DNA of 64,000 bases from Candidatus Aenigmatarchaeota archaeon (GCA_016187335.1 JACPJW010000001.1:96001-160000); one strand, 5' to 3'. Positions 23,754 through 60,730 are shown, counted from the stretch's first letter. A program made the numbers and translations. Notes: generated by a model from the sequence alone, not told the origin.

Positions 23754-24347
23754 ATGAAACTAAGATTGCTAGCCGAAGAAATAACAAAAGCAGAGACTAT
23801 TGAATACTTAGCTGAAGGTGTAAGAAGAGTCGTTCCTGTTCATTTAGATTTTTCGGTAATCGGTGAAAGATATTCTAAAGGTAATGTATGGATGTGCAAT
23901 TTACATCATATAGGTATTAAATTCGTGCCTCCAAATTTAGACGAATACCTGTTAATTCTAACGCATTCACCATTTTCTTACAGGAGGAAAGATATCTCCG
24001 ATCGATTTGAATGGATTGGGAACGCCCACGAAATTAGCTATGCTGGATTATGTGATAATGAAAGTAGAATTCTCATCGTTGGCGGAGACAATTCTCCGAG
24101 TAATGGTAATGTTAAGGTTGCTAGCCATGAAATAGCTCATGCAGTTTTAGGTTATCCCGTAACTTGGGATTTTGAATCTATTCATTGTAAAAATTTTATT
24201 GGTAGCAAAAGATGTGTAATGAATACCGTACAGGAAGTAGGTCAGGGAGTAGGTAGAGACCTCGAAGAATTGTACTTAGGGTTTTGTCAGCCATGCACCG
24301 ATGCAATGAAAGAAGTTGAAAAAAATAAATTCACTCCAAAATCCTGA
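23754..24347 (+). CDS. Archaemetzincin-like Zn metalloprotease
   Basis: HEIAHAVLG...HC....CVM...FCQPC. Confidence 0.65.
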   Translation: MKLRLLAEEITKAETIEYLAEGVRRVVPVHLDFSVIGERYSKGNVWMCNLHHIGIKFVPPNLDEYLLILTHSPFSYRRKDISDRFEWIGNAHEISYAGLCDNESRILIVGGDNSPSNGNVKVASHEIAHAVLGYPVTWDFESIHCKNFIGSKRCVMNTVQEVGQGVGRDLEELYLGFCQPCTDAMKEVEKNKFTPKS

Positions 24348-24365
24348 CGTCATCCACGACGCCGT
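24331..24365 (-). repeat. Orphan copy of the 3' end of the 26317-27237 gene
   Basis: 31 bp (24335-24365) identical to 26321-26351; continues GAG TGA versus GAA TAG, so both copies encode ...GVVDDVRILE*. Confidence 0.92.
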
Positions 24366-24370
24366 GATTT

Positions 24371-25045
24371 TTACATCTGCAATTTCTCTATTCTCAAAAT
24401 CAGATTCGGGTCAGGGCACAATTTCAGGTATTTTTCTCTTTGCTCTATGCTGGCAACGCCGGGGAAATCTCCCTTCATTCCATGCATGTCCGCGATTACC
24501 TGGAAATGAAGGTGCTCGAACCACTGGCCGTTAACACTAAAATTGCCTATCTCCCCGATAGCTTCGCCCATTTGGATTTCCTGCCCTTCTTTTCTGCCTT
24601 CCAGAGACTCCTCGCTTAGATGTCCGTAAAGCGTGTAAAATACCGTGCCGCCAAGCTCATGCTGCAGGATTATTGTAGGACCGTAATCGCCGTGTCCTCT
24701 GTTATTGTGGAAGCTGTGAACAGCAGCGTCAAGCGGCGAGAATATTTTTGTTCCGGCAGGCAGGATCACGTCGATTCCAAGATGAATTGTCCTTTCGGCA
24801 AAAAGGCTGCTGTGCCTGTAAATTGTCCTGTCCTCGTTGTATCTGCCAATGCCAACTGCCGCATTGTTTAGCCGCAAGGTTTCTTTCACGCATCTGTCAA
24901 ATTCTTCGGCAGATCTTATGTCTATTTTCCGCAGCTCCTCATTGTCTTCAGTGAAATCGAAAACAAATATTTTCTCTTTGTTTAGGTCAAAAGAAATTAC
25001 TCTGCCTATTCTGTCTTTATTTCTTCTCAGAATTTCTTCCAGCAT
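24371..25045 (-). CDS. M23 family metallopeptidase
   Basis: HLGID (HxxxD), YGH and EHLHFQ (HxH) motifs. Confidence 0.85.
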   Translation of the reverse strand: MLEEILRRNKDRIGRVISFDLNKEKIFVFDFTEDNEELRKIDIRSAEEFDRCVKETLRLNNAAVGIGRYNEDRTIYRHSSLFAERTIHLGIDVILPAGTKIFSPLDAAVHSFHNNRGHGDYGPTIILQHELGGTVFYTLYGHLSEESLEGRKEGQEIQMGEAIGEIGNFSVNGQWFEHLHFQVIADMHGMKGDFPGVASIEQREKYLKLCPDPNLILRIEKLQM

Positions 25046-25049
25046 TTTC

Positions 25050-26045
25050 TCACCTCGGTAGAAACCAGACGTTAAGGTCTTCGTAAGGCCCTTCCACTTC
25101 TACGTCCCTGTCAGCGTCTATCCTGCAGTGCCTGTTCAGCCTTCCTGCGTATCGAAAGCCAAGGTTCGCTGACTGCTGGTTGACGCCGCGCGAACAAGCC
25201 CTGTCCTCTTCGAAAATAAGGTGAATGTCATTGCCGTATCTTCCAAGAAGCTCGTTTACAAGCGTGGCAACGCATGCCTGGTTCAGTCCGTTGCTCCTGT
25301 GACTAGGATCCGTAGCCTCGTCGCTGAGCTCGCTTATTCTCAGCAACCCTCTGCTTGTTTCGATCTCTGCTATTTCTGCTATTGCAACGGAAACAATGCT
25401 CCCGGAACCATGTCTTGCTAAAGCTACTATAGAAGTGGGTGTTTCGACCAATTCTGCTACATTTTCTTCAGTGAGAGGAAAAACGTAGTCTCTGTAAACT
25501 GCCTGGTAAAGCCTGAAAAGTTGCCTTATGTCCCCGTCACTTCTTATTCCAAGCTCTGTTACGTAGCCTCTTTCGGAAGCCTTTGAAAACGGGTCTCTTG
25601 AAGTAGCTGTTCTTAGCGATTCAAAAACTATTTCATCCTCTTTCAATACCGCATTTCCCTGTTCGATTCTTCGGGCGGAGTTTTCTCCGAAATATTGAAC
25701 CCCGTATCCTTGCCATTCTCCGCTTAAAGGAATGTATTCCGTCTCAAATCCCCGGCTGTAAAAATTTCCCAGCGGAGAAAAGCAATTTGGTTTTCTTATT
25801 CCAGACGATGCCAAGCATGTTCGTTCTGCTAATGGATATCTTGTTACGAATCTGAGCGTTATTCTGGATGCATATCTCCAATCTCTTACGATTCTTGCTT
25901 GTTCTATGAACGGCATAGCTCCATCAGAATGTTCAAGAACAGTTGTGCAGAATCCTTTCACCCTGTCGTTATGCCTGTCAAAAACAGGCTCTCCTATTCT
26001 ACCTATTGAACTGGCGCTTTGATATTCACCCTGCATTGTTATCAA
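25050..26045 (-). CDS. GNAT acetyltransferase resembling beta-lysine N-acetyltransferase (AblB-like)
   Basis: ELSDEATDPSHRSNGL (acetyl-CoA motif), RA.S.GVN..S.NLGFRYAGRL..HC.I, EDLNVW. Confidence 0.7.
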   Translation of the reverse strand: MITMQGEYQSASSIGRIGEPVFDRHNDRVKGFCTTVLEHSDGAMPFIEQARIVRDWRYASRITLRFVTRYPLAERTCLASSGIRKPNCFSPLGNFYSRGFETEYIPLSGEWQGYGVQYFGENSARRIEQGNAVLKEDEIVFESLRTATSRDPFSKASERGYVTELGIRSDGDIRQLFRLYQAVYRDYVFPLTEENVAELVETPTSIVALARHGSGSIVSVAIAEIAEIETSRGLLRISELSDEATDPSHRSNGLNQACVATLVNELLGRYGNDIHLIFEEDRACSRGVNQQSANLGFRYAGRLNRHCRIDADRDVEVEGPYEDLNVWFLPR

Positions 26046-26256
26046 CTCGGCTATTAACTACAGCGTAAAGCAGTTTTCTTCTTCTGTCAGAAAACGAGAA
26101 TGATTCCGCAATTGCTTTCCGCCTTCTGAGCACGGAAATATTGTACCTTAGAGTTCTCTCTGGAACTCTGATTGATTCGCGCAACTGGCGGATATTCATA
26201 GGTCTAGAAGAAAGAGCTTGTAGAATTCTTCTCTGCAGGACGCTTTTCACGTTCAC
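26026..26256 (-). CDS. Winged HTH DNA-binding protein
   Basis: RILQAL...MNIRQL...IRVPERTLRYNISVL. Confidence 0.7.
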   Translation of the reverse strand: MNVKSVLQRRILQALSSRPMNIRQLRESIRVPERTLRYNISVLRRRKAIAESFSFSDRRRKLLYAVVNSRVDNNAG

Positions 26257-26316
26257 CCATCGGAATCACTTGCACTTCATGTACGTGCACACTTTTATTC
26301 CTTTTCATAGCGGCAA

Positions 26317-27237
26317 CTATTCCAAAATCCTGACGTCATCCACGACGCCGTCGTAATCGCTGTCCAAGCCAAGGACAACGTGCGCGTTCTTTTTCTGTAT
26401 TTCATCGAAGCGCTTGAGAAGAGCAAGCACGGCCGCGCGCGTTCCTGAAAACCTTTTCCCGGCTATGAGCAGCAGCTTGCTTTTCCGGTTGAAAGGGTTG
26501 TCCGCCTTGACGATGATGCCGCACTCGTCGCTCCTATAAGTTTTTTTCGTGAGCGATGAGTAGATGTTCTTTTTTGCGTCGAACCGGACGGGCAGCTTGT
26601 CATTGACCGCCCTGGTTATCCTGTTTATGACGGGCCCGCCGATTATTATCAGGTTTTCTTTTACCTCATGCAATTCCGTGTCAAGAACAACAGAAGGCTC
26701 GCTTTTGTTAAGGAACGTTCCCAGAAACAGCGCAAGGTCTATGGCATAGGAAGCATCGCGTGAGCGGGCGCGCTCAGGGCCGTGAGGGTCAGGCGAGCCC
26801 ACGACGATCTTCGCATTGAAAACGCCTTCAGCAATGAAGGGTTCAAGGAATTTGTTGGCTGTTTTAGGAATTTTCTCCGTCTTCTCAAAGTCGCGGAATT
26901 TCAGGAAGAAAGAAGGCTTTGTCAAAACATAAATTTTTGCCAATGTTCCTCCTCTTTCCTCTTTCCTCAGGACCCTTATGATTCCTTGCTTCTCTAGGTT
27001 ATGTACATGGTAGTAAACCTTCTGCTCGTGCATGCGCAGTTGCGCAGCCATTTCCTTGGGGTACGAAGGTTTTTTCGCGAGGGAATGCAGGATCTTCATC
27101 GCCGTCTCAGAAAAATCGGCCTTGCCAAGCTCCGCCGAGGGCAGCGCCAGCACCCTGCCGTCTTTTTCTTCAACTACAAATGCCATTATAACCACAAGTC
27201 TCTTTTGATTGAACTTTGGAGCAGCAAAGTTCATCAC
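26317..27237 (-). CDS. ArsR-type HTH protein with a C-terminal S-layer-like domain (start may be ATG 27186)
   Basis: YPKEMA..L.MHEQKVYYH HTH; IVVGSPDPHG, NLIIIGGPVINRIT, AGKRFSGTRAA. Confidence 0.7.
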   Translation of the reverse strand: MMNFAAPKFNQKRLVVIMAFVVEEKDGRVLALPSAELGKADFSETAMKILHSLAKKPSYPKEMAAQLRMHEQKVYYHVHNLEKQGIIRVLRKEERGGTLAKIYVLTKPSFFLKFRDFEKTEKIPKTANKFLEPFIAEGVFNAKIVVGSPDPHGPERARSRDASYAIDLALFLGTFLNKSEPSVVLDTELHEVKENLIIIGGPVINRITRAVNDKLPVRFDAKKNIYSSLTKKTYRSDECGIIVKADNPFNRKSKLLLIAGKRFSGTRAAVLALLKRFDEIQKKNAHVVLGLDSDYDGVVDDVRILE

Positions 27238-32251: not shown

Positions 32252-32353
32252 CAAAATGAAGGGGGTGTCAGATTTTCTTAATGAAACCGGAAAGCATTTT
32301 CCGTCTTAATTAAAGCCTTTTAAAAGTTCTTCTCAATTATTGATGCTGATATT

Positions 32354-32899: not shown

Positions 32900-32900
32900 A

Positions 32901-36782: not shown

Positions 36783-36869
36783 AAATAATATGTTTCTTTG
36801 CTCAGAAAGCGAAAGCTTTCTGGCAACTCAAGAAGCTTACGCTTCTTCGAGTTTTCCCGAGGGTTTTTC
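36783..36869. repeat. 87-bp structured direct repeat, copy 1
   Basis: Identical to 40797-40883; hairpins CAGAAAGC-GAAA-GCTTTCTG and AAGAAGC-TTAC-GCTTCTT. Confidence 0.95.
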
Positions 36870-40796: not shown

Positions 40797-40883
40797 AAAT
40801 AATATGTTTCTTTGCTCAGAAAGCGAAAGCTTTCTGGCAACTCAAGAAGCTTACGCTTCTTCGAGTTTTCCCGAGGGTTTTTC
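40797..40883. repeat. 87-bp structured direct repeat, copy 2
   Basis: Identical to 36783-36869. Confidence 0.95.
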
Positions 40884-48575: not shown

Positions 48576-48625
48576 TCAAAGACTCTTTGTAAAAAACATT
48601 TAAAGAGCTGAAAGAAAGCTTGTCT

Positions 48626-50269
48626 ATGCATCCGTTTGCGCAGTTCCGCAAGGAATGCGAAGAGTTGTGCGGCGAAAACGCGCGGTTTCTGGAAGAGCCC
48701 AAGGAGCACGCAGACCTCGCCCTGCCTTGCTTCCGCCTGGGCAGGAACCCTGTTGAGATAGCGAAGCAACTGGAAAAAGACCTGCAAAGCAGGATAAAGA
48801 AGGACTCGCTTGTAAAGGATGTGGAAGCGTCAGGTCCATATATTAATTTTTTCATCGACAACAAGAAATTTTCTCATATTGTTATTCAGCAGGTTTTAAA
48901 TGAAAAAGAAAAATACGGCTCGCAGCCGCGCATGAAAGAAAAGATAATGATTGAGTACGCCCATCCAAACACGCACAAGGCCTTCCACGTCGGCCACGTG
49001 CGGAACATCTGCATCGGCGAGGCCCTGTGCAGGCTGCTCGAAAAAAGCGGTTATAAAGTGATCCGCGCAAATTACCAAGGAGATATCGGGCCTCACGTCG
49101 CGAAATGCTTATGGGGCCTGCAGAACCTGGGCATGTCGCAGGAAAAGAACAAGGGCCTTTTTCTCGGTGACGTTTACGCCGCGGCAAACGCGAGGATGGA
49201 GGGGAACCCCCAGCTGGAATCGGAGATCCAGAAGATTAGTAGCGCCCTTTACAGGAGGAGCGACAAAAAACTGCTCCAGTTATGGAAAAAGACAAGGAAG
49301 TGGTCGCTTGACTACTTCGGCTCGATATACAAGGATTTTGGCGCGAAGTTTGACCACCTTTATTTCGAGAGCGAGGTCTTCGAGGAAGGAATAAGGATGG
49401 CTCGCGAGCTGCTCGAGAAGGGTGTCGCGGAGATGAGCGAAGGCGCCATAATTGCCGATTTGAAAAAGCAGGGGCTCGGGGTGTGTGTGATATTGAAAAG
49501 CGATGATGATCCGCTTTACTCGACGAAGGATCTTGGCCTGGTGAAAAAGCAGTTCAGTGAGTACAAGCCCGATAAAATAATCCATGTCGTGGGCTCGGAG
49601 CAGCGGCTGTACTTCCAGCAGATGTTCAAGATATTCGGCTTCATCAACCCTGACTGGGAAAGTAAGAACTACCATCTTTCCTATGAGCTTGTCATGCTGC
49701 AGACGGGCAAGATATCTTCAAGGGCGGGCAGCGTCGTGACTTACGAGCACCTGATCGAGGAAGGGACTGAAAAAGCGGTGGAAGAAATAAAGGAACGAGG
49801 CATCTCGGAAGAAAAAGCCGCGAAGGACATTGCCCTCGCAGCGGTAAAGTATGCCATGCTGAAAAGGGACACTGATAGGACCATAACTTTTGACTGGTCC
49901 GAAGTGCTTAATTTCGAGGGCGACACCGGGCCTTATTTGCAGTACACTTACGCCCGCGCCTTATCCATTTTACGCAAGAGCAAAAGGAAGCCCAAAGCCG
50001 CTCCGCTTTTTACTGAACTAGAGTTCGACCTTGCAAAGAAGCTTGCCATGTTTCCTGAAATCATTGAAAAGTCAGCAAGGGATTTGAAGCCGAACTATGT
50101 TGCAAATTATCTTTATGACCTGGCGACGCTGTTCAACAAATTCTATCATGAAACCCGTGTTGTCGGCACTAAGGAAGAAGAGACTCGCCTAGCGCTGGTT
50201 GCCGCAACGGCGCATGTTCTTAAAAACGGCATGGAAATACTAGGGATAAAAGCATTAGAGAAAATGTAA
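48626..50269 (+). CDS. argS: Arginine-tRNA ligase
   Basis: HVGH (HIGH), KISSR (KMSKS), FEGDTGPYLQYTYAR. Confidence 0.96.
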   Translation: MHPFAQFRKECEELCGENARFLEEPKEHADLALPCFRLGRNPVEIAKQLEKDLQSRIKKDSLVKDVEASGPYINFFIDNKKFSHIVIQQVLNEKEKYGSQPRMKEKIMIEYAHPNTHKAFHVGHVRNICIGEALCRLLEKSGYKVIRANYQGDIGPHVAKCLWGLQNLGMSQEKNKGLFLGDVYAAANARMEGNPQLESEIQKISSALYRRSDKKLLQLWKKTRKWSLDYFGSIYKDFGAKFDHLYFESEVFEEGIRMARELLEKGVAEMSEGAIIADLKKQGLGVCVILKSDDDPLYSTKDLGLVKKQFSEYKPDKIIHVVGSEQRLYFQQMFKIFGFINPDWESKNYHLSYELVMLQTGKISSRAGSVVTYEHLIEEGTEKAVEEIKERGISEEKAAKDIALAAVKYAMLKRDTDRTITFDWSEVLNFEGDTGPYLQYTYARALSILRKSKRKPKAAPLFTELEFDLAKKLAMFPEIIEKSARDLKPNYVANYLYDLATLFNKFYHETRVVGTKEEETRLALVAATAHVLKNGMEILGIKALEKM

Positions 50270-50306
50270 TATGGTCTAGAAAGAATTTCAAAGAAATTCT
50301 TGGTAG
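50268..50306. repeat. 39-nt family-2 hairpin, covarying partner of 8391-8429
   Basis: AATATGGTCTAGAAAGAATTTCAAAGAAATTCTTGGTAG. Confidence 0.85.
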
Positions 50307-50332
50307 GCATCAAGGCATTGGAGAAGATGTAG
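50306..50332 (+). repeat. Synonymously recoded orphan copy of the argS 3' end
   Basis: GGC ATC AAG GCA TTG GAG AAG ATG TAG versus GGG ATA AAA GCA TTA GAG AAA ATG TAA (50243-50269); both read GIKALEKM*. Confidence 0.88.
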
Positions 50333-50402
50333 GCAAAAACTATCATTGCGTAGTGAAGCGGAAAATAAAGTTTTTTAATCCTTTTCCCTGCTATTTTTCA
50401 TT

Positions 50403-50906
50403 ATGTTCTTCTCAGAAATCTACGGTTCGTGGAGGAAAATACAGGAAGAGAAATACGAGGGCTTGTGGAGCATCCTCGGGAGGGATTTCTTCGCGGCGTT
50501 TGAAAAAAGGCGCGTTCTTGACCTGGGGTGCGGCTCCGGGTATTTTGAGTCGTTCCTGCGCAGCAGGGGCGTGAACGCCGGGATAATCAGCGTTGACGTT
50601 GAATTTACAAAAAAGGTTTCCCCGTTTGTCATTGCGGACGGCGATTCGCTGCCTTTCAGGGACGGTTCTTTTGATATTGTAGTCTGCGTGGACACTGCCC
50701 ACCTCTTAGGCGGCAGCGATTTCCGCCGCGTTCTGCGCAAAAACGGTATTCTGCTGATGAGCGTTTTCTTCAACGGCACAAATTACGGGGAGCGCGCTGA
50801 AATGCTGAAGGAAAAGCTTGGCGGCTTTGAAATTCTGCTGGAATTTGAAACCGGTAAGAGGGAAAGGGACTGCGTAATTGTTGCAAAAAACTCAATGACC
50901 AGTTAA
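50403..50906 (+). CDS. Class I SAM-dependent methyltransferase
   Basis: VLDLGCGSG, DGDSLPFRDGSFD. Confidence 0.85.
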   Translation: MFFSEIYGSWRKIQEEKYEGLWSILGRDFFAAFEKRRVLDLGCGSGYFESFLRSRGVNAGIISVDVEFTKKVSPFVIADGDSLPFRDGSFDIVVCVDTAHLLGGSDFRRVLRKNGILLMSVFFNGTNYGERAEMLKEKLGGFEILLEFETGKRERDCVIVAKNSMTS

Positions 50907-50933
50907 AATAGAAATAAAAAATATAAGAAGAAA

Positions 50934-51161
50934 TCAGACCTTCTTTATTGCGTCGGAAAGAAAATCGATGATTTCTTTTTCCACGGGCACTGCGATGCTT
51001 TTCTTGTAGCGCCTTTCGCCCGTCCTTGTCATGAAGCCGCGGGAAATTGAAATGAATTCGTTTTCCCCTTCTTCCGTGACCGCTTTCTTTCTGGCTATTT
51101 CCAGGAAATTGGAAGAGCCGAACTTTATCTCCTCGCTTTTGATTGTTTCAAATGTTACCAT
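50934..51161 (-). CDS. Small nucleic-acid-binding protein, possibly PC4-like fold
   Basis: Beta-rich; FLEIARK, FISISRGF, KSIAVP; GAGGTG SD. Confidence 0.5.
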   Translation of the reverse strand: MVTFETIKSEEIKFGSSNFLEIARKKAVTEEGENEFISISRGFMTRTGERRYKKSIAVPVEKEIIDFLSDAIKKV

Positions 51162-51351
51162 GTTGCCACCTCGTTGTCGCTTGACGCAAAATCGCGTGAA
51201 TCATGAATTGCTTCGGGTTGTCTTGCGTCTGTTTTTGTTTTCAAACTTTGTTTTCGTTTAGGTTTCTTCCGTTTTGGTTCCTTTCGGTTATGACCGGACT
51301 TTCTGGTTTTTGGTTAAACTTTTTTATAAAAAGGTTGCTTGAAAGAAAAAA

Positions 51352-51597
51352 TCACTTCTTCTTCTCGGCGCGTTCGCGCGCTTCCCATTTCATGTCTTCG
51401 TACTCAATCCAGGCGATGAGAAAGCCCAGGAACGCAAGGAACGCCCCGAAAGTCCCGAAGAACACCGTCTTCAGTGCGCTCCATGTATTAACGCCGAACA
51501 CGCTCCCGTTCCCGAACCAGGGGGTTGAAACGGCGTACCAATAAATGCCTGCGAATAAAATTAGCAGCCCTATGATCATTTTAACTGCTGAATTCAT
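51352..51597 (-). CDS. Small two-TM membrane protein
   Basis: Two hydrophobic helices and a charged tail WIEYEDMK. Confidence 0.7.
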   Translation of the reverse strand: MNSAVKMIIGLLILFAGIYWYAVSTPWFGNGSVFGVNTWSALKTVFFGTFGAFLAFLGFLIAWIEYEDMKWEARERAEKKK

Positions 51598-51658
51598 TTT
51601 TTATCCACCTCTGGTTTACGTGATTATGTTTGTCGCAAAGCTTTTTAAACGCTATTGC

Positions 51659-51724
51659 TACAAGAACATACCGCTAGATATTTTATTAGTGGTATGTTCT
51701 GTACAATGAGAACGTACGTTCTCA
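51659..51724. repeat. Palindrome sharing both arms with 32196-32250, plus a second palindrome TGAGAACG-TA-CGTTCTCA
   Basis: Reverse complement has TACAGAACATACCACT (16 nt) and GGTATGTTCTTGTA (14 nt), identical to the 32196-32250 arms. Confidence 0.85.
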
Positions 51725-51767
51725 TTATAAAAGCAATTGTCGGATTTTTTTTTTGAAGGTGCCAAAA

Positions 51768-52325
51768 ATGGTTCATCAATATTTGCGGGAAGCGTGGAAA
51801 AAGCCCAGACAGACCGGCGAACAAAAACAGACCGACGAACGAAATTCGTCAAGCAACTTTGCGTCTATCGGTTCTCTTGTAAAGGATAAAGTGACAAAGT
51901 GGAGAAAGCAGGGAGTTGTTGTTCGTATTGACAAACCGACCAGGATTGACCGCGCCCGCTCTCTGGGTTACAAGGCGAAGCAGGGCTTTGTAATTGCAAG
52001 GGTGCGGATCAAGAAAGGCGGCAGAAGGCGCCACACAATAAGAAAAGGCAGAAAGCCGACGAAGGTCGGGCTTCGCCACTACACGCCTGAGAGAAGCAAG
52101 CAGTCAATAGCGGAAACCCGCGTTGCCGGAAGGTTTCCCAACATGGAGGTTCTGAATTCATACTACATCGGCGAGGACGGGAAATACAATTATTACGAGG
52201 TCATCCTTGTCGACTCCAATCATCCGGCAATAAGAAACGACAAAAGGATTTCGTGGATTGCCCGCCAGCGGCGGCGCGCATACAGGGGCCTGACATCAGC
52301 GGCAAAGAAATCAAGGGCGCTCTGA
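51768..52325 (+). CDS. rpl15e: Ribosomal protein L15e with an apparent N-terminal insertion
   Basis: YLREAWKKP, PTRIDRARSLGYKAKQG, EVLNSY..GEDG.Y..YEVILVD; GAAGGTG SD before ATG 51768. Confidence 0.95.
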   Translation: MVHQYLREAWKKPRQTGEQKQTDERNSSSNFASIGSLVKDKVTKWRKQGVVVRIDKPTRIDRARSLGYKAKQGFVIARVRIKKGGRRRHTIRKGRKPTKVGLRHYTPERSKQSIAETRVAGRFPNMEVLNSYYIGEDGKYNYYEVILVDSNHPAIRNDKRISWIARQRRRAYRGLTSAAKKSRAL

Positions 52326-52446
52326 TTCTTCCGTTTTAAAAGATTCCCGTCCTAAATTATTGCAAGGGCAGAACGCAGGATGGCATGAAGAAAGCAGCGG
52401 CGAACTTCGGCGCTTGCGATGTTGATGAAGCTCTTTGGTGGTAGTT

Positions 52447-53157
52447 ATGCCCTTCTACGACATGCATGTTCACACTACTCTTTCTATAGGCGAAAATACG
52501 CTGGGTGACATAGCGGATTTCGCGAAAAAGCTCGGCCTGAACGGCCTTGGCATTGTCAGGTATTACAGCGGCGGGAAAATCGAGCAACTGGCAAAAAGAA
52601 GCGACATTGATATCGTTGATGCGGTTATGCTCAAGCCTGCCAGCCCTGAAGAGCTGAACAGGCTGGCTGAGAAAGTTAGAGCAAGATCAGAAATCCTGAT
52701 GGTCCACGGCGGCAACTACGACGTGAACCGCGCCGCGTGCGAGAACCCGCTCATTGATGTTTTATGCCACCCGGAGCTTGGCAGGAACGACAGCGGCATT
52801 GACCATATTGTAGCAAAGGCGGCTGCTGAAAATGACGTTGCTGTTGAAATTAATTTCCGCGAGGTTCTGGAATCCTACAAGAGGCAGCGGGTGCATATTT
52901 TGTCAAGCATGAGGAAAAACGTGAAGCTGTGCGAGAAATACGAGGCGAAGATAATCACGGCTTCCGGCGCTATCTCAAAATGGAACATGCGCCCCGGCCG
53001 CGACCTGGCCGCACTGAGCCATTTGTTGGGCCTTGAGCTGGGAAAAGCGATAGACACTGTCACAACAATACCCGAAGAAATGGTAAGAGCGAACAGGGAG
53101 AAATTGGAAGGCAAAAGGTGGGAAGGAGTCAGCATTGTAGAGGAAGGTGGGGAATAG
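52447..53157 (+). CDS. rnp3: RNase P protein component 3 (Rpp30)
   Basis: PHP-like barrel, NRAACE, AVEINF; in the rpl15e-rnp3-rnp2 context. Confidence 0.88.
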   Translation: MPFYDMHVHTTLSIGENTLGDIADFAKKLGLNGLGIVRYYSGGKIEQLAKRSDIDIVDAVMLKPASPEELNRLAEKVRARSEILMVHGGNYDVNRAACENPLIDVLCHPELGRNDSGIDHIVAKAAAENDVAVEINFREVLESYKRQRVHILSSMRKNVKLCEKYEAKIITASGAISKWNMRPGRDLAALSHLLGLELGKAIDTVTTIPEEMVRANREKLEGKRWEGVSIVEEGGE

Positions 53158-53477
53158 TGAAAATAAGCAAAGCACAGAAAATCGTGAAGGAATTTGCAAA
53201 GCGCAACAAATGGAAAGATGACCCGAACATAGACAAGTTCGACCATGTTCACGAGGAGCTAATAGAAATGTCAAGGCATTTGCGTTACAAGGAACTGGAA
53301 GAGCGCAAAAAAATCATCAAGGAAAGAAAAGAAGTTTTTGAGGACGGCATAGGTGATTTGCTTTTTGTTGTCATGCGCCTTTCAAACCAGCTTGGAATTG
53401 ATGCCGAGAAAGCTTTCGAAAAAGTAAAGAGAAGAATAACGAAAAGGTACGATAGGAAAAGCGAAGGAAAGAAGTGA
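53157..53477 (+). CDS. MazG-like nucleotide pyrophosphohydrolase
   Basis: HEELIE..., EDGIGDLLF motif; GTG start overlapping the rnp3 stop. Confidence 0.75.
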   Translation: MKISKAQKIVKEFAKRNKWKDDPNIDKFDHVHEELIEMSRHLRYKELEERKKIIKERKEVFEDGIGDLLFVVMRLSNQLGIDAEKAFEKVKRRITKRYDRKSEGKK

Positions 53478-53518
53478 AGATGAAAATGCGAAATTCGAAT
53501 TGACCGTGGTGAATAGTC

Positions 53519-53884
53519 ATGTCAGAACCCAAGATGCTGCCGCCGAGCATGCGCTCGCAGAAGCGCTATGTTGTATTTGAAATCATCAGCGAGCACAAAG
53601 TCGCTTATCCTGACATCGTCACGGCTGTATGGGCGAACATGTTGGGATTCCTGGGTGAAGCCGCGGCGAGCGAAGCAAAGATATGGAACATAAAAAACCT
53701 GTACGACGAGTCCCAGCAGAAGGGCGTCATAAGGTGTGCGCACGACCGCGTGGAGCATATAAGGACTGTCCTGTCCCTGATGCAGATAATCGGCGAATCC
53801 CGGTGCGTTGTACGGGTCGTCGGAGTGACAGGCACGATAAAGGCTGCCAGAAACAAGTATCTTTCTAAAGAAGCGGAGAAGTAG
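53519..53884 (+). CDS. rnp2: RNase P protein component 2 (Pop5/Rpp14)
   Basis: LPPSMRSQKRYVVF, GVTGTIKAA. Confidence 0.9.
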   Translation: MSEPKMLPPSMRSQKRYVVFEIISEHKVAYPDIVTAVWANMLGFLGEAAASEAKIWNIKNLYDESQQKGVIRCAHDRVEHIRTVLSLMQIIGESRCVVRVVGVTGTIKAARNKYLSKEAEK

Positions 53885-54018
53885 GAGAAAAATTTCAGCT
53901 TCCGGGGGAACTTAGGTTCTTCTGTATAAAAGGTTTTCTTTATTGGAAAATAGAAGGTAGCTTTATTGGTTTTTGGAAACAAGGAATGTTTGGAGTGAAT
54001 CATAGGGTGATTTTGGAT

Positions 54019-54420
54019 ATGGACTACAAAGAACTTCTGAAAAAAGCCCGCGCGAACCTGCCCGTGAAAAAGGGCGACGCCAGGTTTGAGATGCCGCGCG
54101 CCAGCGTGCTTATAACGGGCCGCCTGACTACCGTGAAGAATTTTTCGGACTTGGCCAAGATTTTGAGGCGTGATGCGAAGCATGTATCAAAATATTTATT
54201 CAAGGAGCTGGCAGTTCCGGGGGACATCAAGGGCGGCGAGCTCGTGCTGCAGGGAAAGTTTTCCTCGTCCGTGATCAACGGCAAGATAGAGAACTACGCT
54301 GAGGAGTTCGTCTACTGCCACGAGTGCGGCAAGCCCGACACGGTGGTTGTGAAAACAGACAGGATTGAGCAGATAAAATGCGAGGCGTGCGGCGCTCGCA
54401 GGCCTGCGCGCCATATCTGA
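54019..54420 (+). CDS. eif2b: Translation initiation factor 2 beta subunit
   Basis: RFEMP, ELAVPG, VYCHECGKPDT, CEACGA. Confidence 0.93.
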   Translation: MDYKELLKKARANLPVKKGDARFEMPRASVLITGRLTTVKNFSDLAKILRRDAKHVSKYLFKELAVPGDIKGGELVLQGKFSSSVINGKIENYAEEFVYCHECGKPDTVVVKTDRIEQIKCEACGARRPARHI

Positions 54421-54442
54421 AGAACATGAATTTTGGCGGAAG

Positions 54443-54748
54443 ATGGTTCCGATGTTTGACTATAAGGTATTCAGGGCCGGCAGCGATGTCCTGGTTGCAA
54501 TAGCCGATTCTTCTATAGTAGGGAAAAAATTTTCCGAGGGCGGCCTGGAACTGGAAGTGAAAAGGGATTTTTACGGCGGCATGAAATGCGATGAAAGGAA
54601 AGCTGTGAAAATCGTGAATTCAGCCACTATCGTCAATGCAGTCGGCAAGGATATCGTATCGCTGCTGCTGAAGAAAGGCTTTGTGGACGGCGACAAGGTC
54701 ATCAAGGTGCAGAAAATACCGCATGCCCAGATAGTTGTGGTGAAGTGA
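54443..54748 (+). CDS. DUF424-family protein
   Basis: VAIAD..IVGK, FYGG, ATIVNAVG, IPHAQ. Confidence 0.85.
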   Translation: MVPMFDYKVFRAGSDVLVAIADSSIVGKKFSEGGLELEVKRDFYGGMKCDERKAVKIVNSATIVNAVGKDIVSLLLKKGFVDGDKVIKVQKIPHAQIVVVK

Positions 54749-54753
54749 GTAAA

Positions 54754-55674
54754 TTATTCAACTTGAATTTCCGGAGCCTTGGATTCTTCATATAATTCAT
54801 TCAGATACATATTCGGGCCGCCCAGTATTCCCGCAACACGACTAAAGGCGGTTACAGGATCTTTAGGATCTACTTCGCCTTTGTACCATTTCATGTGGTG
54901 AGTTTTTTCCCAGTTGTATCTATGTTCGGATATTCCTGATTTTAGCAAGATTCTTCTTGCAAGCTCGGGATTTTCACCCTCCGATAGAAAAATCAAAGTC
55001 GTTACTGCGCTTTCATAATGCAACCCAGCTGTCCCAATAGGCTCTATCTGAGCTGCTACTTGCCTTAGTCCGTCTTTACTGCGCTCGGGATTAACAACGG
55101 GCTTTCCGACATCTTTCAACTGCGGCGTAAACCTTTCAGCCAGTTCAATTATTCTTCCTGCAGGGGTCTGTGGATGACCATCAGCGATTTCTTGCAGAAG
55201 CCTTCTATACATAGTTGCGGCTCTGAAACATCTTGCATTGTCCCTGACGTGATGATTAAGGCAAGGTTCAAGATTGTAATCAATTCGCAAACATGAATCT
55301 TCTCTTGCTAATTGATAAAATTCATTTCCTTTAGGTTCAAGGACATGGGACTCGTGCGGCAATAAAACAATATGAGAAAGCATCATAATACTCATTTTGT
55401 CCGAAGCATCTTCGTCAAAAAATACTACGCCTCGATATTCTCCGGTCTTGCATCCAAGACACAAGTCACTTACATGAATCCCTCCATACGATTCGAGTTG
55501 TTCTGCTGGAATGACACCAGGAAAAGTATAACGTCTTCCAAAAGGTTCAACCGTGCTTTTTGTTTGGAATCGCCCAAACCCCGCAGGACCCCAAGAAGTT
55601 TGCGTGGTTCCATCTTTTCCGCAATGAAGGCATGCAAGATTCTTTATAAGATGAACGTAGTCTATGGCGCTCAT
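54754..55674 (-). CDS. Hypothetical protein with two CxxC pairs (ORFan)
   Basis: CLHC...CLGC; 306 aa. Confidence 0.6.
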   Translation of the reverse strand: MSAIDYVHLIKNLACLHCGKDGTTQTSWGPAGFGRFQTKSTVEPFGRRYTFPGVIPAEQLESYGGIHVSDLCLGCKTGEYRGVVFFDEDASDKMSIMMLSHIVLLPHESHVLEPKGNEFYQLAREDSCLRIDYNLEPCLNHHVRDNARCFRAATMYRRLLQEIADGHPQTPAGRIIELAERFTPQLKDVGKPVVNPERSKDGLRQVAAQIEPIGTAGLHYESAVTTLIFLSEGENPELARRILLKSGISEHRYNWEKTHHMKWYKGEVDPKDPVTAFSRVAGILGGPNMYLNELYEESKAPEIQVE

Positions 55675-55756
55675 AAAACTTCCTTAATACTAATACCTCT
55701 TAGCTTAAATTCGTGAAATAATAGATGGAATCAATTACAAAGATATCACAAATAAA

Positions 55757-56119
55757 TCACGTCGTGAACGTCTCGGTCTTCTTCGCCCTGTTCGAGGAAA
55801 TGCCCAGCGTTATGGTGTATTTTTTCTGGGCGCAGTCCGCGGCAGAAAAGGAAACGTCTTCTATGTATCCCAAGGACGCCATCTTCCTTTTTGTGTAATA
55901 AATGGCTTCACTGAGGTTTTTTTCGATGCCCGCGCAGTCCGGCGGCGAGCTGCTCACAGAGTTTTCCAGCACCGTCTTCACGTTCTCGAAATAGAATGCC
56001 TCCGAAGACGTTCCTGTCGGCAGAAAATCTATTGCAGAATAGTCCCTGAGCAGGCCGGAAAGAACGACAAAAAACGACGTTATGACGACGGCGGAAATTA
56101 TGAACCACTGGCCTTTCAT
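55757..56119 (-). CDS. Type IV pilin-like protein (class III signal peptide)
   Basis: MKG/QWFIISAVVITSFFVVL: basic-Gly cleavage site, Gln +1 and a hydrophobic helix. Confidence 0.6.
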   Translation of the reverse strand: MKGQWFIISAVVITSFFVVLSGLLRDYSAIDFLPTGTSSEAFYFENVKTVLENSVSSSPPDCAGIEKNLSEAIYYTKRKMASLGYIEDVSFSAADCAQKKYTITLGISSNRAKKTETFTT

Positions 56120-56143
56120 GGAAAACTAATTGGCTGCGCGGCT

Positions 56144-57247
56144 TTAATGCTTTTTGCTGAAACTGATTATTTCTTCCGCCTCGCCTTCTTCCAGAGAAAA
56201 CTTCTCCGCCAGGGCGGCATTCTTGCGGAGCAGCGCGGAAACAAGCGGAATATAGCTCCTTGCCTTTTTTCTTGATGTGCCGAGCGCCGAGGCGATTTTT
56301 TCCAGTGCATCATTGCCTTTGCCCGCATAGAACCTCCGCGGCGGCTGGTATCTGGTAAAGCCGGCGTAAGCTTTTTTCTTGCTCAATGAAACGCCAAAAG
56401 CCGCGAGGTCGTATGCAAACTTCTGCAGGCTCCACGACTGCCTTTTTATTATCCTTGCTGAGAACAAATCCGACTTTGAAAGGTAGTCATAAGCAGCGGC
56501 GATTTCATCTTCGCTCCTGTATTCGTTAGCTATGTTCTCCTGCAGCCACGGTATCACGCTCTCTCCCGCGCTGCGCATTGCTTCGGAAACCGCGGAAATG
56601 CTCTTTGTCTTGAAAATTGTTCTCATAACAGCAAAAATATTTTCCTCGAAATCGCGCCGGCTTTCGCCTGAAAACAAATCAATAATGGCCGCGCGCAGGT
56701 CGCCGTTGCAGTTAACCGCTATCCTCCTTATCGCCTTCATCTCCATATCCATTTTTTCCAAAACAGCTACCTTCCTCAGGAAGTATTCAACGTCGTCAGC
56801 GGCGATCCTCTCGTATTTGACAAGAACGCAGCATTCGCGCAGCGCCCTCAATTTTTGCTCGTAAGCGTCGGTGGCGATGACAATCACAGGGAATTCGCTT
56901 TCCTGTACGAGGCCCTTTATGGCGGCGGCGGAATCCAGCGCTTCCGCGTCGTCTATGACAAACAGCTTTTTCTTGTAAAAAATGCTCCTCTGCTTCGCCG
57001 CCTTGAGCAGGGTTTCCTTTATGGCAGAAGCGCTCCTGATGTCGGAAGCGTAGCTCTCCACGAGCTCGCAGCCAAGCTCCTTTGCTATGAGCTTTACGGA
57101 CAAGGATTTGCCGACGCCCGGCGGACCGTAAAGAAGAAGCCCCTTTCCTTTCTTCCAGTTTTTCACCCATCGCAATATTCCGGCGGCCTGCTGCCTGTTG
57201 CCAGCAAAATCCTTGAGCGACATGGGCTCGTATTTCCGGAGGAGCAT
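56144..57247 (-). CDS. rfcL: Replication factor C large subunit
   Basis: KYEP, GPPGVGKS, E..ASD.RS, GDLRAAI. Confidence 0.88.
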   Translation of the reverse strand: MLLRKYEPMSLKDFAGNRQQAAGILRWVKNWKKGKGLLLYGPPGVGKSLSVKLIAKELGCELVESYASDIRSASAIKETLLKAAKQRSIFYKKKLFVIDDAEALDSAAAIKGLVQESEFPVIVIATDAYEQKLRALRECCVLVKYERIAADDVEYFLRKVAVLEKMDMEMKAIRRIAVNCNGDLRAAIIDLFSGESRRDFEENIFAVMRTIFKTKSISAVSEAMRSAGESVIPWLQENIANEYRSEDEIAAAYDYLSKSDLFSARIIKRQSWSLQKFAYDLAAFGVSLSKKKAYAGFTRYQPPRRFYAGKGNDALEKIASALGTSRKKARSYIPLVSALLRKNAALAEKFSLEEGEAEEIISFSKKH

Positions 57248-57297
57248 GCTTTTCCTTTGGGAAGAATTTATAAAAAGAAGGTACACTGCAACTGCAT

Positions 57298-57999
57298 CTA
57301 CGCTGTTTTCTCGATTGCATCTGCCAGTTCATCACGAAGGGGGAAAATTCCATGTGAAAGATTTTCTGTCATTTCATCGATGAAGGGTGTTCGTCTTTCC
57401 TCTTGGCGTGCAATGATTTCATCTAGATGCCTTGTCGCCTCCTTGTCGCCAGCCATCTCCCTTCTTATTAAATCTTCTGCAAAATCACCTGTATATTCAG
57501 CGCCACAAATGTAAACGTCATATGCTTCGAGACTTTCTTCGATTTCGCCGAGCCTTAGCCTGACGTGAACAAGCCCGGCTCTGTCAGTTAAAATCGTCTC
57601 GGGCAATCTTCTGTTTTCAAGCCAATGGCGGGGGAAGCGTCTCCATGCTGGATTTCCAAGTCTTCTTATTGAATAAGAGGAGCAAGCCATTCCAGCCAGT
57701 TCATATCTCTGGTAAAGATGCCAGCTGGAATAAAAAACTTCGGTTGCTCTCCCCCATATCGCCGCTATATCCAGCGGACCCAAGCTGAAATCTCCTATGT
57801 CCTCAATCGCATCAGCAAGGAACCCGTAACTTCTTCTGACAAAAGAATATAATTCGTTGTTATGCTTAATTTTCAAAGACTTATCATTGAGCTGCTGGAT
57901 TATCGGCAGATGAGCGTCAATAACAGAAATCACCGGGTGCTGTCCGTACGCCCCCTCCCTTCGCGCTGCCTGCTCTATAAGCTCTCTCGTAAGTTCCAT
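57298..57999 (-). CDS. Hypothetical protein (ORFan)
   Basis: 233-aa ORF; no motif recognised. Confidence 0.6.
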   Translation of the reverse strand: MELTRELIEQAARREGAYGQHPVISVIDAHLPIIQQLNDKSLKIKHNNELYSFVRRSYGFLADAIEDIGDFSLGPLDIAAIWGRATEVFYSSWHLYQRYELAGMACSSYSIRRLGNPAWRRFPRHWLENRRLPETILTDRAGLVHVRLRLGEIEESLEAYDVYICGAEYTGDFAEDLIRREMAGDKEATRHLDEIIARQEERRTPFIDEMTENLSHGIFPLRDELADAIEKTA

Positions 58000-58029
58000 A
58001 GCAATCTGAAATCTCTGAAGGATTTAAAT

Positions 58030-58521
58030 TCAGAACCTGTATTCCTCCAACTTGTATATCTTTGATACGATGACTTCCTTCCAGTCGCCTATCAGGCCGC
58101 CGAATTTCTCGCGGAACTCCAGCTTCATGGTTTCGAACTCGCGCGCATCTTTGGCAAGAAAAACTATGTACAAATCATAATCGCCGAGCATGGCCATGAG
58201 GTCGATGACCCTCGGATTCTTTTTCATCGCGTCGATCAGCGCCTCGTACTTCTCCTTGTCTATGTCCTTCAGCTTGATGTAGACATGCACGGCGAAGCCG
58301 ATGCCTATTTTGCCCGGATCCGGCTCTATCGTATATCGCCTTATCACCCCGATGCGCTCAAGCTTTGCTATGCGCTTCTTCGTGGAATCAACGGAAAGAC
58401 CTATGTCACCGGCGATTTTTGTCAGTTTTGAGCGTGCATTTTCGCCTAAAATGTTCAGGATGCGCCTGTCTTTCTCGTCCAGGTGCCTTATTTTCTCCGA
58501 TTCCTCTTCATTTTTGACCAT
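58030..58521 (-). CDS. Lrp/AsnC transcriptional regulator
   Basis: LDEKDRRIL..L.ENAR...IA..IGLS..ST..RI.KLE..GVI; C-terminal RAM domain LGDYDL. Confidence 0.92.
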   Translation of the reverse strand: MVKNEEESEKIRHLDEKDRRILNILGENARSKLTKIAGDIGLSVDSTKKRIAKLERIGVIRRYTIEPDPGKIGIGFAVHVYIKLKDIDKEKYEALIDAMKKNPRVIDLMAMLGDYDLYIVFLAKDAREFETMKLEFREKFGGLIGDWKEVIVSKIYKLEEYRF

Positions 58522-58548
58522 ATTTATCTTATAAATTAAGATAAATAT
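58520..58548. promoter_or_regulatory. Perfect 12-bp inverted repeat at the Lrp start, candidate operator
   Basis: ATATTTATCTTA-TAAAT-TAAGATAAATAT in a divergent promoter region. Confidence 0.5.
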
Positions 58549-58617
58549 TTAAAGAAATTCCTATTTTTTAAGACATTTTTCGTTAAAAGGCTTAATACTT
58601 TCACATACTACTATATA

Positions 58618-58821
58618 GTGGTGATAATAATGATATTTGGTTTCATGGAAAGCGCTCCCCTGAAAGAGGTCAGGCAGAGCAGGCTTAATCCTCCTGCTGT
58701 TTTCAGGAAAAAGAATGAGGATTGTTCGGGCTGCGTTGACGTTTTTGATTTCAGCCTGAACGGAAGCGGGGCTGTCTTCAGGACAGTAACCTGCGGGTAC
58801 CACGGTGAGGGATTAAAGTGA
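58618..58821 (+). CDS. Small hypothetical protein with CxxC and CxxH (ORFan)
   Basis: CSGC...CGYH; overlaps the next ORF. Confidence 0.4.
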   Translation: MVIIMIFGFMESAPLKEVRQSRLNPPAVFRKKNEDCSGCVDVFDFSLNGSGAVFRTVTCGYHGEGLK

Positions 58822-59087
58822 TGTTCTTCCTTGGTTATGCAGTTGGAATTAACGGGCAACCGCAAGAACCATTATTCAAAGGCCGATTAGCAGAGTCGTT
58901 GGTCAGAGGGGCATTGATTGGGCTCAGGCGGGGTCTGGAACAGGGTCATGAACCATCGGAAATTGAAAGTTATCTTGTCTTCGAAAAAGAAAACGGAGAA
59001 AGATTTTACAAGGTATTGTTCCAATCAGAAGTCCAACCAAAGAATCCCGGGTACAAAAGTAGAGACCATTGCGGGTACGGGTTATAG
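58818..59087 (+). CDS. Hypothetical protein (ORFan)
   Basis: 89 aa, overlapping both neighbours. Confidence 0.4.
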   Translation: MMFFLGYAVGINGQPQEPLFKGRLAESLVRGALIGLRRGLEQGHEPSEIESYLVFEKENGERFYKVLFQSEVQPKNPGYKSRDHCGYGL

Positions 59088-59488
59088 TCATGACAGAATA
59101 TTTCTCACAGTCCAAAAGCGTCAGGGAAACAGCTGGCAGGTTAGGTATCTCGTCGTACGAAGAAGCGGCAGCTGGATTAAACGGGGCACAAAGGCGTCTG
59201 CGCGAAATAGATAGTGAAATCAACAGGCTTCAGCGTCTCAAATCCGCAGCGATAGGCCAAGTTCGGGATTACCATTTCTGCTCGCGCCTGCGTGATTACA
59301 GGGAAGCTGTAATAAGAGAGCTTGATGGAAAGGACCCGAGGCAAATGGACGAGCAGGAACGTGCTGCGTTGCAAAACTCTGTGAAGATTCGCGCTTACGA
59401 ACATGGCTTCGACGTCTTCGGCATGGAACAGCGAAGAATGCGGGAAAAGCTCGCGAGCAGGTTGAGCGTGACGGACAAGAGGAAATAA
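59069..59488 (+). CDS. Hypothetical coiled-coil protein (ORFan)
   Basis: HTH-like start (VRETAGRLGIS) followed by a coiled coil. Confidence 0.5.
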   Translation: MRVRVIVMTEYFSQSKSVRETAGRLGISSYEEAAAGLNGAQRRLREIDSEINRLQRLKSAAIGQVRDYHFCSRLRDYREAVIRELDGKDPRQMDEQERAALQNSVKIRAYEHGFDVFGMEQRRMREKLASRLSVTDKRK

Positions 59489-59608
59489 AACAGTAAAGAG
59501 AATGTGAAACGGCAAGGCAATTGCAGAAACGATAGGAATATTTTACCGGTTTTTTCTTTCCGTTTATTCCGCAATCATTATTTAAGATTTCATCGCGATT
59601 TATTCAAC

Positions 59609-59821
59609 ATGCGCAGGCAGGCAAAGAAAATAGAAATAAAAAACGCCATGAAATGCGGGCGCTGCGAGCTTTCATTCAAGAGCATGCTCGCGCTGAAGAG
59701 GCACAGCCACGTGCATCTGGACGACATGCAGGAACTGAGGCTGCTGCAGGAAGGCCACAAGCCCGTGGAAACGAAGTTCGGCGGGATTTTCAAGGGGAAA
59801 AATAAGGTTATAATAAGTTAA
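59609..59821 (+). CDS. C2H2 zinc-finger protein
   Basis: KCGRCELSFKSMLALKRHSHVH. Confidence 0.75.
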   Translation: MRRQAKKIEIKNAMKCGRCELSFKSMLALKRHSHVHLDDMQELRLLQEGHKPVETKFGGIFKGKNKVIIS

Positions 59822-59976
59822 TTCTTTGATTAAACTTTCTTTCTAAGAAAGTTTACAAGAACAGGGTTATTATAAGCTAATTCTTTTGGTGCAACTTTTC
59901 CTAAAAGTTGCTTTGATTAAACTTTGGATTTACTGGCCACAAGTCTCTTTTGGTGCAACTTTGGAGAAGCAAATTG
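59822..59976. repeat. Family-1 palindrome cluster containing a recoded orphan copy of the C2H2 gene 3' end (59857-59880)
   Basis: Modules at 59824-59856, 59883-59910, 59911-59927 and 59947-59976. AAG AAC AGG GTT ATT ATA AGC TAA versus AAA AAT AAG GTT ATA ATA AGT TAA. Confidence 0.85.
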
Positions 59977-59977
59977 C

Positions 59978-60730
59978 TTAGTGACCGCCGTATTTGAATA
60001 ATGCAGTCATGTATATTTTTTCTAATTTAGGTATCTCTTCTCTGGGAAGACGTAACTCCAATGCTTCAAGCGTTCTGCTCATTGACCTGTATCTTACTGT
60101 ATCCCTTATGAAAGGCTTGAATCCTTCTTTGCCGTCATGAGGGCTGACATAATATCTGTTTACAAGATCGCCGAATGCAAGCGCCTCCCGATAAGGCGTT
60201 GTCGTCTCTATTTCTCTTCTTCCATTACCATCTTCATTAAGCCAGCCGCCGTATTCTGCGTATGTCTCCATGAAAAGCGTTGCTAGTGGTTGCGGAACAT
60301 CAGCGCTTTTCAAAAGTCTTCTGGACCTGACATGCCTAGTTTCGTGGTCCGTGACTCTTTGAGGGCGTAAGTGAGAAGGTAAACGTCTATTGAAACCCAT
60401 CACAGGAACTTTCACAGCATCTCTAATTGGGTCGTACTGGAAGCCTGTGACGCCTGGCGGACCGTTTTCATATACTACAACGGGTACTCTACTGTTTTCA
60501 GGTTTATCACCCACGCCAAGGTCATCTTCTTGGTTTATCTTCCTGAAAGACCTTTCTACGCTTGATCTAACATCATAAGGCAAACCGCTTGTATCCAGAG
60601 AAGGCATAAGGAGTCCGCGCAGCATTCCTCTTAATCTGAATCCGGGCATCATGAGCGTAAGTTCGTCCACTAATTCCTGCACGCTTGTCCCGCCCCTGTA
60701 GTCCGAAATGCTTCCTCTCATCCAAATCAC
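59978..60730 (-). CDS. Hypothetical protein with an HExxH zincin motif (ORFan)
   Basis: DHETRH with a downstream ETYAE. Confidence 0.55.
   Translation of the reverse strand: MIWMRGSISDYRGGTSVQELVDELTLMMPGFRLRGMLRGLLMPSLDTSGLPYDVRSSVERSFRKINQEDDLGVGDKPENSRVPVVVYENGPPGVTGFQYDPIRDAVKVPVMGFNRRLPSHLRPQRVTDHETRHVRSRRLLKSADVPQPLATLFMETYAEYGGWLNEDGNGRREIETTTPYREALAFGDLVNRYYVSPHDGKEGFKPFIRDTVRYRSMSRTLEALELRLPREEIPKLEKIYMTALFKYGGH

Follow-up and report, generated by a model that had tools for sequence, protein, structure and literature searches.

Displaced gene ends behind hairpin modules and gene cassettes in an aenigmatarchaeal genome: insertion with a substitute end as a possible explanation

How does an intact gene come to be followed, beyond a hairpin or a gene cassette, by a second copy of its own last codons? 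This question is raised by three loci in a stretch of 64,000 nucleotides (nt) from Candidatus Aenigmatarchaeota archaeon (GCA_016187335.1 JACPJW010000001.1:96001-160000), here called the window, namely the arginyl-tRNA synthetase gene argS, a small C2H2 zinc-finger gene and an HTH_20 gene, and by two loci elsewhere in the genome. Positions are counted from the first letter of the window, which is G000:C2:96001-160000 in the coordinates of the genome, a two-contig archaeal assembly of 1.01 Mb that is 91% complete and comes from groundwater metagenomes. At each locus, which we call a scar, an insert separates the functional end of the gene from a stranded copy of that end. The insert is genuine, and the functional tail represents a different allele from the stranded one. 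The explanation that we put forward for each scar, with confidence and doubt in about equal measure, is insertion of foreign DNA that supplies a substitute end to the gene it enters, which would reproduce in miniature the architecture of prophage e14 in the Escherichia coli icd gene.

The scars were collected by a genome-wide scan in which the last seven residues of each of 1205 open reading frames (ORFs; called greedily by length) were compared with the residues preceding each stop codon within 3 kb, at a threshold of at least six matches in seven. Five such matches were found downstream on the same strand, compared to none downstream on the opposite strand, one upstream, none upstream on the opposite strand and none with reversed tails. 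Once tandem paralogues are removed, five scars are left, three in the window and two outside, with stranded remnants of 7, 7, 10, 21 and 56 codons; widening the scan to 10 kb yielded no further scars in this genome. The initial annotation of this DNA had proposed such a scan and had reported the same scar at argS, the C2H2 gene and a '306-aa HTH gene', all placed within 50243-59880. The matches exceed chance as gauged by the four controls (0-1 matches), and all three loci are real, but the HTH gene lies at 26317-27237 on the minus strand, outside that interval. The 306-aa ORF at 54754-55674 was rejected as the third scar, there being no copy of its tail anywhere in the window. Also set aside were a small paralogue at G000:C2:891886, which shares GMVGGC-stop with a 63-aa ORF and resembles it at the N-terminus as well, and an 87-bp perfect direct repeat (36783-36869 and 40797-40883), which is intergenic and overlaps no gene end. 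In a relative of another genus (G041; 381 kb, 431 ORFs) there was no scar, but with about 1.8 expected at the rate of this genome the absence carries little information.

The evidence that the two tails are alleles comes from the differences between them. When the observed number of substitutions was placed randomly and the frequency of equal peptide retention was scored, P was 6e-5 for argS, 0.0085 for the C2H2 gene, 0.039 for the HTH gene and <2e-5 for the Zn-ribbon gene at one of the outside loci, which bears out the synonymous differences that had been described for the first three. Counted as A/T in the functional versus G/C in the stranded copy, the differing sites stand at 6:0, 4:0, 2:1 and 11:5. 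Such near-exclusively synonymous differences indicate two diverged alleles rather than a local duplication, and because both copies evolved under coding constraint, the functional tail must come from another genome. The tails are endings native to the respective gene families: orthologues of the HTH gene in 33 of the 44 family genomes end alike (xDGxxDxVRILE-stop), as do those of the C2H2 gene in 38 of the 44 (FKGKN[KR][IV][IV][IV][ST]-stop).

The argS scar comprises the following features (GC3, fraction of G or C at third codon positions).

48620..50269, plus strand: argS, arginyl-tRNA synthetase, intact, 549 aa; ORF with a same-genus orthologue 85% identical over the full length
50246..50269, plus strand: functional ('new') argS tail, IKALEKM-stop; A/T-rich third positions, GC3 2/7
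50267..50308, plus strand: E1 hairpin module, from the TAA stop; predicted fold with inner stem 50281-50289/50293-50301 and outer stem 50274-50278/50304-50308
50309..50332, plus strand: stranded ('old') argS tail, IKALEKM-stop; host-like codons, GC3 6/7, in frame with the TAA

The tail copies differ at 5 of 24 nt, every one a third codon position. The insert amounts to 63 nt with no gene inside, a 4-nt microhomology (TAGG) lies at the junction, and the same-genus orthologue has neither the module nor a second tail. As an independent check we used Logan contigs of four runs from two groundwater studies. The scar (50243-50332) is bridged by contigs of 15 kb, 10 kb, 781 nt and 615 nt with zero differences, and no alternative joint was seen in the contigs of the four runs. 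Because independent contigs from two studies bridge it identically, the argS scar is not an assembly artefact. A degenerate 'argS tail plus E1' pattern had no match in genome contigs or viral contigs, and a search of metagenome contigs for close argS relatives returned only proteins of at most 40% identity.

Compared to its same-genus orthologue, argS is a mosaic, with a synonymous difference of 0.30 in codons 101-390 and 0.57 thereafter (Fisher P = 2.4e-7): the central 290 codons are unusually similar to the orthologue and GC3-rich, and the last 160 codons show background divergence and are A/T3-richer. Because the neighbouring genes, which define the background, span 0.32-0.59, the mosaic identifies no donor tract. 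The stranded tail lies 39 nt beyond the TAA in the same reading frame, and no stop codon intervenes (50267-50332); read-through of the TAA would append 21 residues terminating in the same heptapeptide.

At the C2H2 gene the arrangement is similarly compact.

59504..59821, plus strand: small C2H2 zinc-finger gene, a family core gene; weak Pfam zf-C2H2/C2HE matches
59798..59821, plus strand: functional C2H2 tail, KNKVIIS-stop; compositionally foreign to its own gene, GC3 1/7
59822-59855, plus strand: E2 module, foot TTCTTTGATT plus an 11-bp hairpin (59831-59855); identical 34-nt copy at G000:C2:510395-510428
59857..59880, plus strand: stranded C2H2 tail, KNRVIIS-stop; GC3 4/7, in line with the gene body
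59881..59978, plus strand: three more foot-plus-hairpin units of the E2 family, 3' of the stranded tail

Here the copies show five differences, four of them synonymous, and the insert totals 59 nt, again without a gene. GC3 is 51/67 in the gene body, 1/7 in the functional tail (Fisher P = 0.002) and 4/7 in the stranded tail, and the foreign composition begins exactly at the repeat, not upstream of it. There is no clear microhomology at the second junction; the same 9 nt, TAATTCTTT, follow both stop codons. None of the 19 orthologues examined has a second tail, and a degenerate 'C2H2 tail plus E2' pattern found no match in genome contigs. Contigs of all four runs end within the 34-nt module, and because that module has an identical copy elsewhere, the C2H2 junction is not independently bridged; an assembly artefact, which the initial annotation had named as a refutation, is excluded for argS. 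The two tails are mutually complementary (TTATAATAA vs TTATTATAA; 59790-59890), so that the module hairpin extends to a long interrupted stem (z = -4.3).

The third scar in the window carries genes.

26317..27186 (ORF to 27237), minus strand: HTH_20 plus S-layer-like-domain gene, the '306-aa HTH gene' (Pfam); core gene, 33/44 family genomes
26317..26351, minus strand: repeat copy 1, 31 exact nt (26321-26351), then A TAG, the functional end
24366..26316, minus strand: cargo of 1951 nt, three genes; GC3 0.41-0.51 vs 0.61 in the host gene
26026-26256, minus strand: cargo gene, small HTH_20 protein
25050-26045, minus strand: cargo gene, GNAT-like 331-aa protein
24371-25045, minus strand: cargo gene, M23 peptidase
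24331..24365, minus strand: repeat copy 2, the same 31 nt (24335-24365), then G TGA, the stranded end; native downstream region after it

Past the 31 exact nt, 3 of 5 nt differ, one copy being followed by GAA TAG and the other by GAG TGA. The 1.95-kb cargo is a true insertion, because TFB lies 450-900 nt behind the orthologous HTH gene in 13 of the 19 relatives' loci fetched and no cargo homologue is present in any of the 19. Searches for the 331-aa cargo protein turned up no copy in 69 other genomes of the order and no relative in viral contigs. Translation of the HTH_20 gene probably starts at the ATG at 27186; upstream of it, the initial 17 codons of the '306-aa' ORF (27186-27237) overlap a promoter-like repeat (TTTGATTGAACTTTGGAGCAGCAAA), copies of which occur at 88-94% identity in the same-genus genome.

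The two scars outside the window are built around cassettes as well.

G000:C2:31814-32473: gene of a 219-aa surface-type protein, PIN-locus scar (locus 31814-33330); the cargo is a PIN cassette
G000:C2:224265-224495: Zn-ribbon gene beside hsdR; 21-codon remnant 2.9 kb downstream

At the PIN locus the remnant consists of 56 codons behind the PIN gene, with 50% amino-acid identity to the functional gene, and a 21-nt exact repeat occupies the very end of otherwise ~65%-identical DNA; GC3 is host-like in both, at 0.73 in the functional gene and, judged by eye, about 0.70 in the remnant. The functional Zn-ribbon gene is A/T-rich throughout like its cargo (GC3 0.29). That cargo, beside the type I restriction R-subunit gene hsdR, includes a 431-aa FtsK/HerA-type ATPase (G000:C2:221391-222686; L105:2392-3687), which among NCBIfam families scores best, though always far below cut-off, against CedD/CedB DNA-import and VirB4/TraC transfer ATPases. 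A purine-rich word of 16-17 nt common to three cargos was taken as chance, since the reading frames differ.

The HTH-gene and PIN-locus repeats have a core of 16-19 nt in common, GTCGTKGA(YGA)CGTCAGGA. A motif search of the 44 family genomes found four matches in this genome, all at the two scars (window 26321-26351 and 24335-24365; G000:C2:32438-32453 and 33295-33310), and none in the 43 related genomes. The HTH_20/S-layer-like and 219-aa proteins are otherwise unrelated, yet both end in YD[GS]VVD(D)VR, encoded by nearly identical 25-29 nt, and both gene ends carry a tail duplication around an A/T-rich cargo. The shared core is a candidate att-like site common to the two genes. Repeats that are exact over 31 and 21 nt and contain this core speak for a join that is sequence-specific or based on short homology, and against an illegitimate one.

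Are the hairpins, then, part of the process? The E1 family, to which the argS module belongs, is genus-specific, with 6 copies here (the others at G000:C2:75141, 104384, 546408, 863031 and 874101), 4 in the same-genus genome and none in 42 other family genomes. Its stem changes are compensatory and its GA/GG internal loop is conserved. Between 4 and 5 of the 10 copies end in a Shine-Dalgarno-like GGTGA, 5-8 nt ahead of a start codon, and by its sequence E1 looks as much like an element of 5' untranslated regions as like a terminator. The foot motif of the E2/E3 family occurs at least 121 times in the genome, mostly between genes, vs about once in a shuffle; in relatives, E2/E3 modules sit within tRNA introns, and the C2H2 module is antisense to that orientation. 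An Rfam search of the window returned no family. The predicted folds have a 2x2 internal loop (argS) and a 4/1-nt asymmetric loop (C2H2), and a bulge-helix-bulge mRNA intron was rejected, because neither fold has the pair of 3-nt bulges with a 4-bp helix between them.

Perfect hairpins of 7 bp or more that start within 40 nt after the stop codon follow 8.9% of ORFs, compared to 1.2% within genes. Among the 164 ORFs with such a hairpin, only argS and the C2H2 gene have a tail copy directly behind it (19/24 nt; null expectation, 0.05 per replicate), and the tails of hairpin-followed genes show no A/T shift. At these two loci the stranded tail starts 1-2 nt past the last paired base. The coincidence of junction and hairpin end, which had been proposed for two of the three loci, is therefore real at argS and C2H2; it amounts to the insert being 'tail plus module' and is not general for hairpins. 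No family hairpin lies at the junctions of the three cargo scars. Since the hairpin scars contain no genes and the gene-bearing scars have no hairpin at either junction, the hairpins are not linked to gene acquisition here, contrary to the role assigned to them in the initial annotation. What remains of its single unifying mechanism is the topology common to the scars.

Under insertion with a substitute end, the foreign DNA would start with its own, synonymously diverged version of the last codons of the target gene, stop codon included, and would enter at the start of those codons, so that the gene would stay intact and the resident end would be pushed downstream as an untranslated relic. The remainder of the insert would be a gene-less hairpin module (63 nt in all at argS, 59 nt at C2H2) or an A/T-rich gene cassette (1.95 kb at the HTH gene, 2.9 kb at the Zn-ribbon gene and perhaps the PIN cassette). 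Incoming and resident tail copies would be joined by recombination, via a short stretch of identity (31 and 21 nt at the two core-sharing loci) or microhomology (TAGG at argS), through an enzyme acting in trans, either a recombinase or the host repair machinery. The donor would be DNA that once lay behind the same gene in another lineage. At argS and C2H2, all differing sites are of donor type in copy 1 and of host type in copy 2, the pattern that results when crossing over takes place at the repeat's left edge, as in e14/icd.

Several observations weigh against this explanation. None of the inserts contains a recombinase gene, and no recombinase domain was detected among the scanned cargo proteins; the genome has one tyrosine recombinase, below the family cut-off. 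The identical core at the left edge is at most 4-6 nt at argS and C2H2, which is poor for a site-specific enzyme. The units of 59-63 nt were each seen once, and a post-stop hairpin is accompanied by neither a tail copy nor an A/T shift of the tail in the other 162 genes that have one. The genome and viral collections yielded no donor with 'tail plus module'. The argS mosaic, with its break near codon 390, would suit a longer homologous tract, and the Zn-ribbon locus suggests gene replacement rather than end insertion, because there the A/T-richness of the cargo extends over the entire functional gene. An uninserted allele was not seen, in that no contig of the four runs joins across any insert, although contigs drop rare variants.

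The recombinase in question, the single Phage_integrase match in the genome (C2:737502-738876), lies outside the inserts, is of Xer/integron type and has 457 aa with a C-terminal zinc ribbon. It adjoins a tRNA-Met gene (G000:C2:737502-739000), in which an E2-like hairpin module after the anticodon loop is probably an intron. As for the HUH or competence genes that the initial annotation had suggested seeking, the genome gave no match for the Y1 HUH transposase (PF01797) or TnpB (PF07282), a search for ComEC (PF03772) in the genome, which is 91% complete, gave nothing, and a CedB/CedD/VirB4-like ATPase is present only far below cut-off. Reverse transcriptase (RVT_1) had no match in the genome either; a diversity-generating retroelement was rejected on this ground and because the adenines are in the coding copy, not in the non-coding one.

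The strongest competitor for the scars as a group is homology-facilitated illegitimate recombination, which we judge somewhat unlikely overall but regard as a live rival, especially at argS and the Zn-ribbon locus. In this scheme, chromosomal DNA of a relative pairs over a long anchor in the gene body, and its far end, cut at the 3' edge of the hairpin, is joined without homology to a point a few codons ahead of the resident stop. The two-allele signature of the tails, the TAGG at the argS junction, the start of the stranded tail 1-2 nt past the hairpin in both short scars and the donor-like character of the whole Zn-ribbon gene all agree with it. Documented in bacteria, the process has been put forward to explain displaced effector ends (PMC5361080). 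The 3' third of argS, about twice as diverged synonymously as the centre (0.57 vs 0.30) and A/T3-richer, could mark such a donor tract; however, against a background of 0.32-0.59 it is the 3' part that is ordinary and the centre that is odd. At C2H2 the donor tract stops at the repeat with nothing upstream, two cargo loci have exact repeats of 21-31 nt with a shared core, the 331-aa cargo protein was not found in 69 other sampled genomes of the order, and neither was ComEC in this one. Moreover, the remnants, at 7 to 56 codons, lie far nearer to the stop codon than random junctions would. Accordingly, the homology-anchored uptake from relatives envisaged in the initial annotation is upheld in that the functional tail comes from another genome, but no upstream anchor is demonstrable at C2H2, and the illegitimate second junction agrees with the TAGG at argS but not with the exact repeats at the two cargo scars.

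Other explanations concern fewer loci or fare worse. At the PIN locus (G000:C2:31814-33330), the 56-codon fragment could be what remains of a tandem paralogue partly deleted by the PIN cassette, a distinct possibility although we lean away from it: the host-like GC3 of gene and remnant, their identity of only 50% and the tandem paralogue families elsewhere in the genome are all in keeping with it, but the 21-nt exact end in ~65%-identical DNA, which holds the core common to the HTH-gene scar, is not. It is improbable, in our view, that the hairpin modules of this lineage, taken as one family with those that form tRNA-intron bodies and those behind stop codons, are gene-less mobile units that enter the last codons of conserved genes and carry a re-coded replacement with a stop codon, the argS and C2H2 scars being the two youngest insertions and the many other stop-abutting modules older ones in which the displaced tail has eroded. 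Drift after a tandem duplication in place, or after a long target-site duplication by a hairpin element, would produce the repeat-insert-repeat topology, and the four foot-plus-hairpin units in tandem behind C2H2 could be taken in its favour. However, a non-coding copy would change at all codon positions, whereas the observed changes are synonymous (P = 6e-5 to 0.0085) and directional, the functional copy being A/T-richer, and repeats of 24-35 nt far exceed known target duplications; we consider this origin very improbable. An assembler that chained two strain alleles is hardly credible: this is a metagenome assembly and the C2H2 contigs break in the 34-nt module in all four runs, but the argS scar is crossed identically in two studies with no alternative joint, and a chance 6-of-7 tail match right behind the C2H2 module is very unlikely.

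If insertion with a substitute end is the correct explanation, small gene-less hairpin units and integrase-less cassettes would do no harm on entering essential genes at their ends, since each brings a spare end with it. Ultra-small archaea would then gain DNA by a route to which standard searches for mobile elements are blind. It would also help to account for the crowding of hairpin repeats directly behind stop codons. In this genome, however, it would amount to a handful of events and would account for few of the orphan genes, the scattered ORFans that the initial annotation had sought to explain in this way: of about 178 low-GC3 gene runs, no more than 3 bear a scar.

How do the scars compare to known systems? 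The hairpin modules resemble REP-like (repetitive extragenic palindromic) and MITE-like (miniature inverted-repeat transposable element) repeats in that the E2/E3 family is mostly found between genes, and in tRNA introns of relatives. We know of no REP-like or MITE-like hairpin family described as arriving with a copy of the end of a neighbouring gene; here, only 2 of the 164 post-stop hairpins have a tail copy behind them. Target-site duplication by a transposon or MITE does not match repeats of 24-35 nt with synonymous, directional differences, nor does HUH transposition (IS200/IS605, REP/RAYT) match a genome in which neither a Y1 transposase nor TnpB was detected.

Displacement of C-termini by illegitimate recombination has been proposed for Vibrio effector ends and Rhs loci (PMC5361080, which cites Jackson 2009, de Vries & Wackernagel 2002 and Prudhomme 2002). 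As in those Rhs and type VI secretion effector loci, a new 3' end arrives together with adjacent DNA and the old 3' end is stranded downstream (PMC5361080). However, the new tip there is a different toxin with an immunity gene, whereas here the same peptide is restored in housekeeping or core genes, and no anchor tract is demonstrable at C2H2.

The closest parallel is prophage e14 (and phage 21) in E. coli icd, where the intact gene runs into the insert, a displaced C-terminal pseudogene lies at its far end, and the two gene ends differ mainly synonymously (PMC13626634). The inserts described here are unlike e14 in being only 59 nt to 2.9 kb long, without integrase or excisionase, and in two cases they hold only a hairpin module; the repeats are 24-35 nt, with an identical core evident at two loci only. 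The likeness lies in the layout of the two junctions, of which attL rebuilds the gene and attR holds the displaced end.

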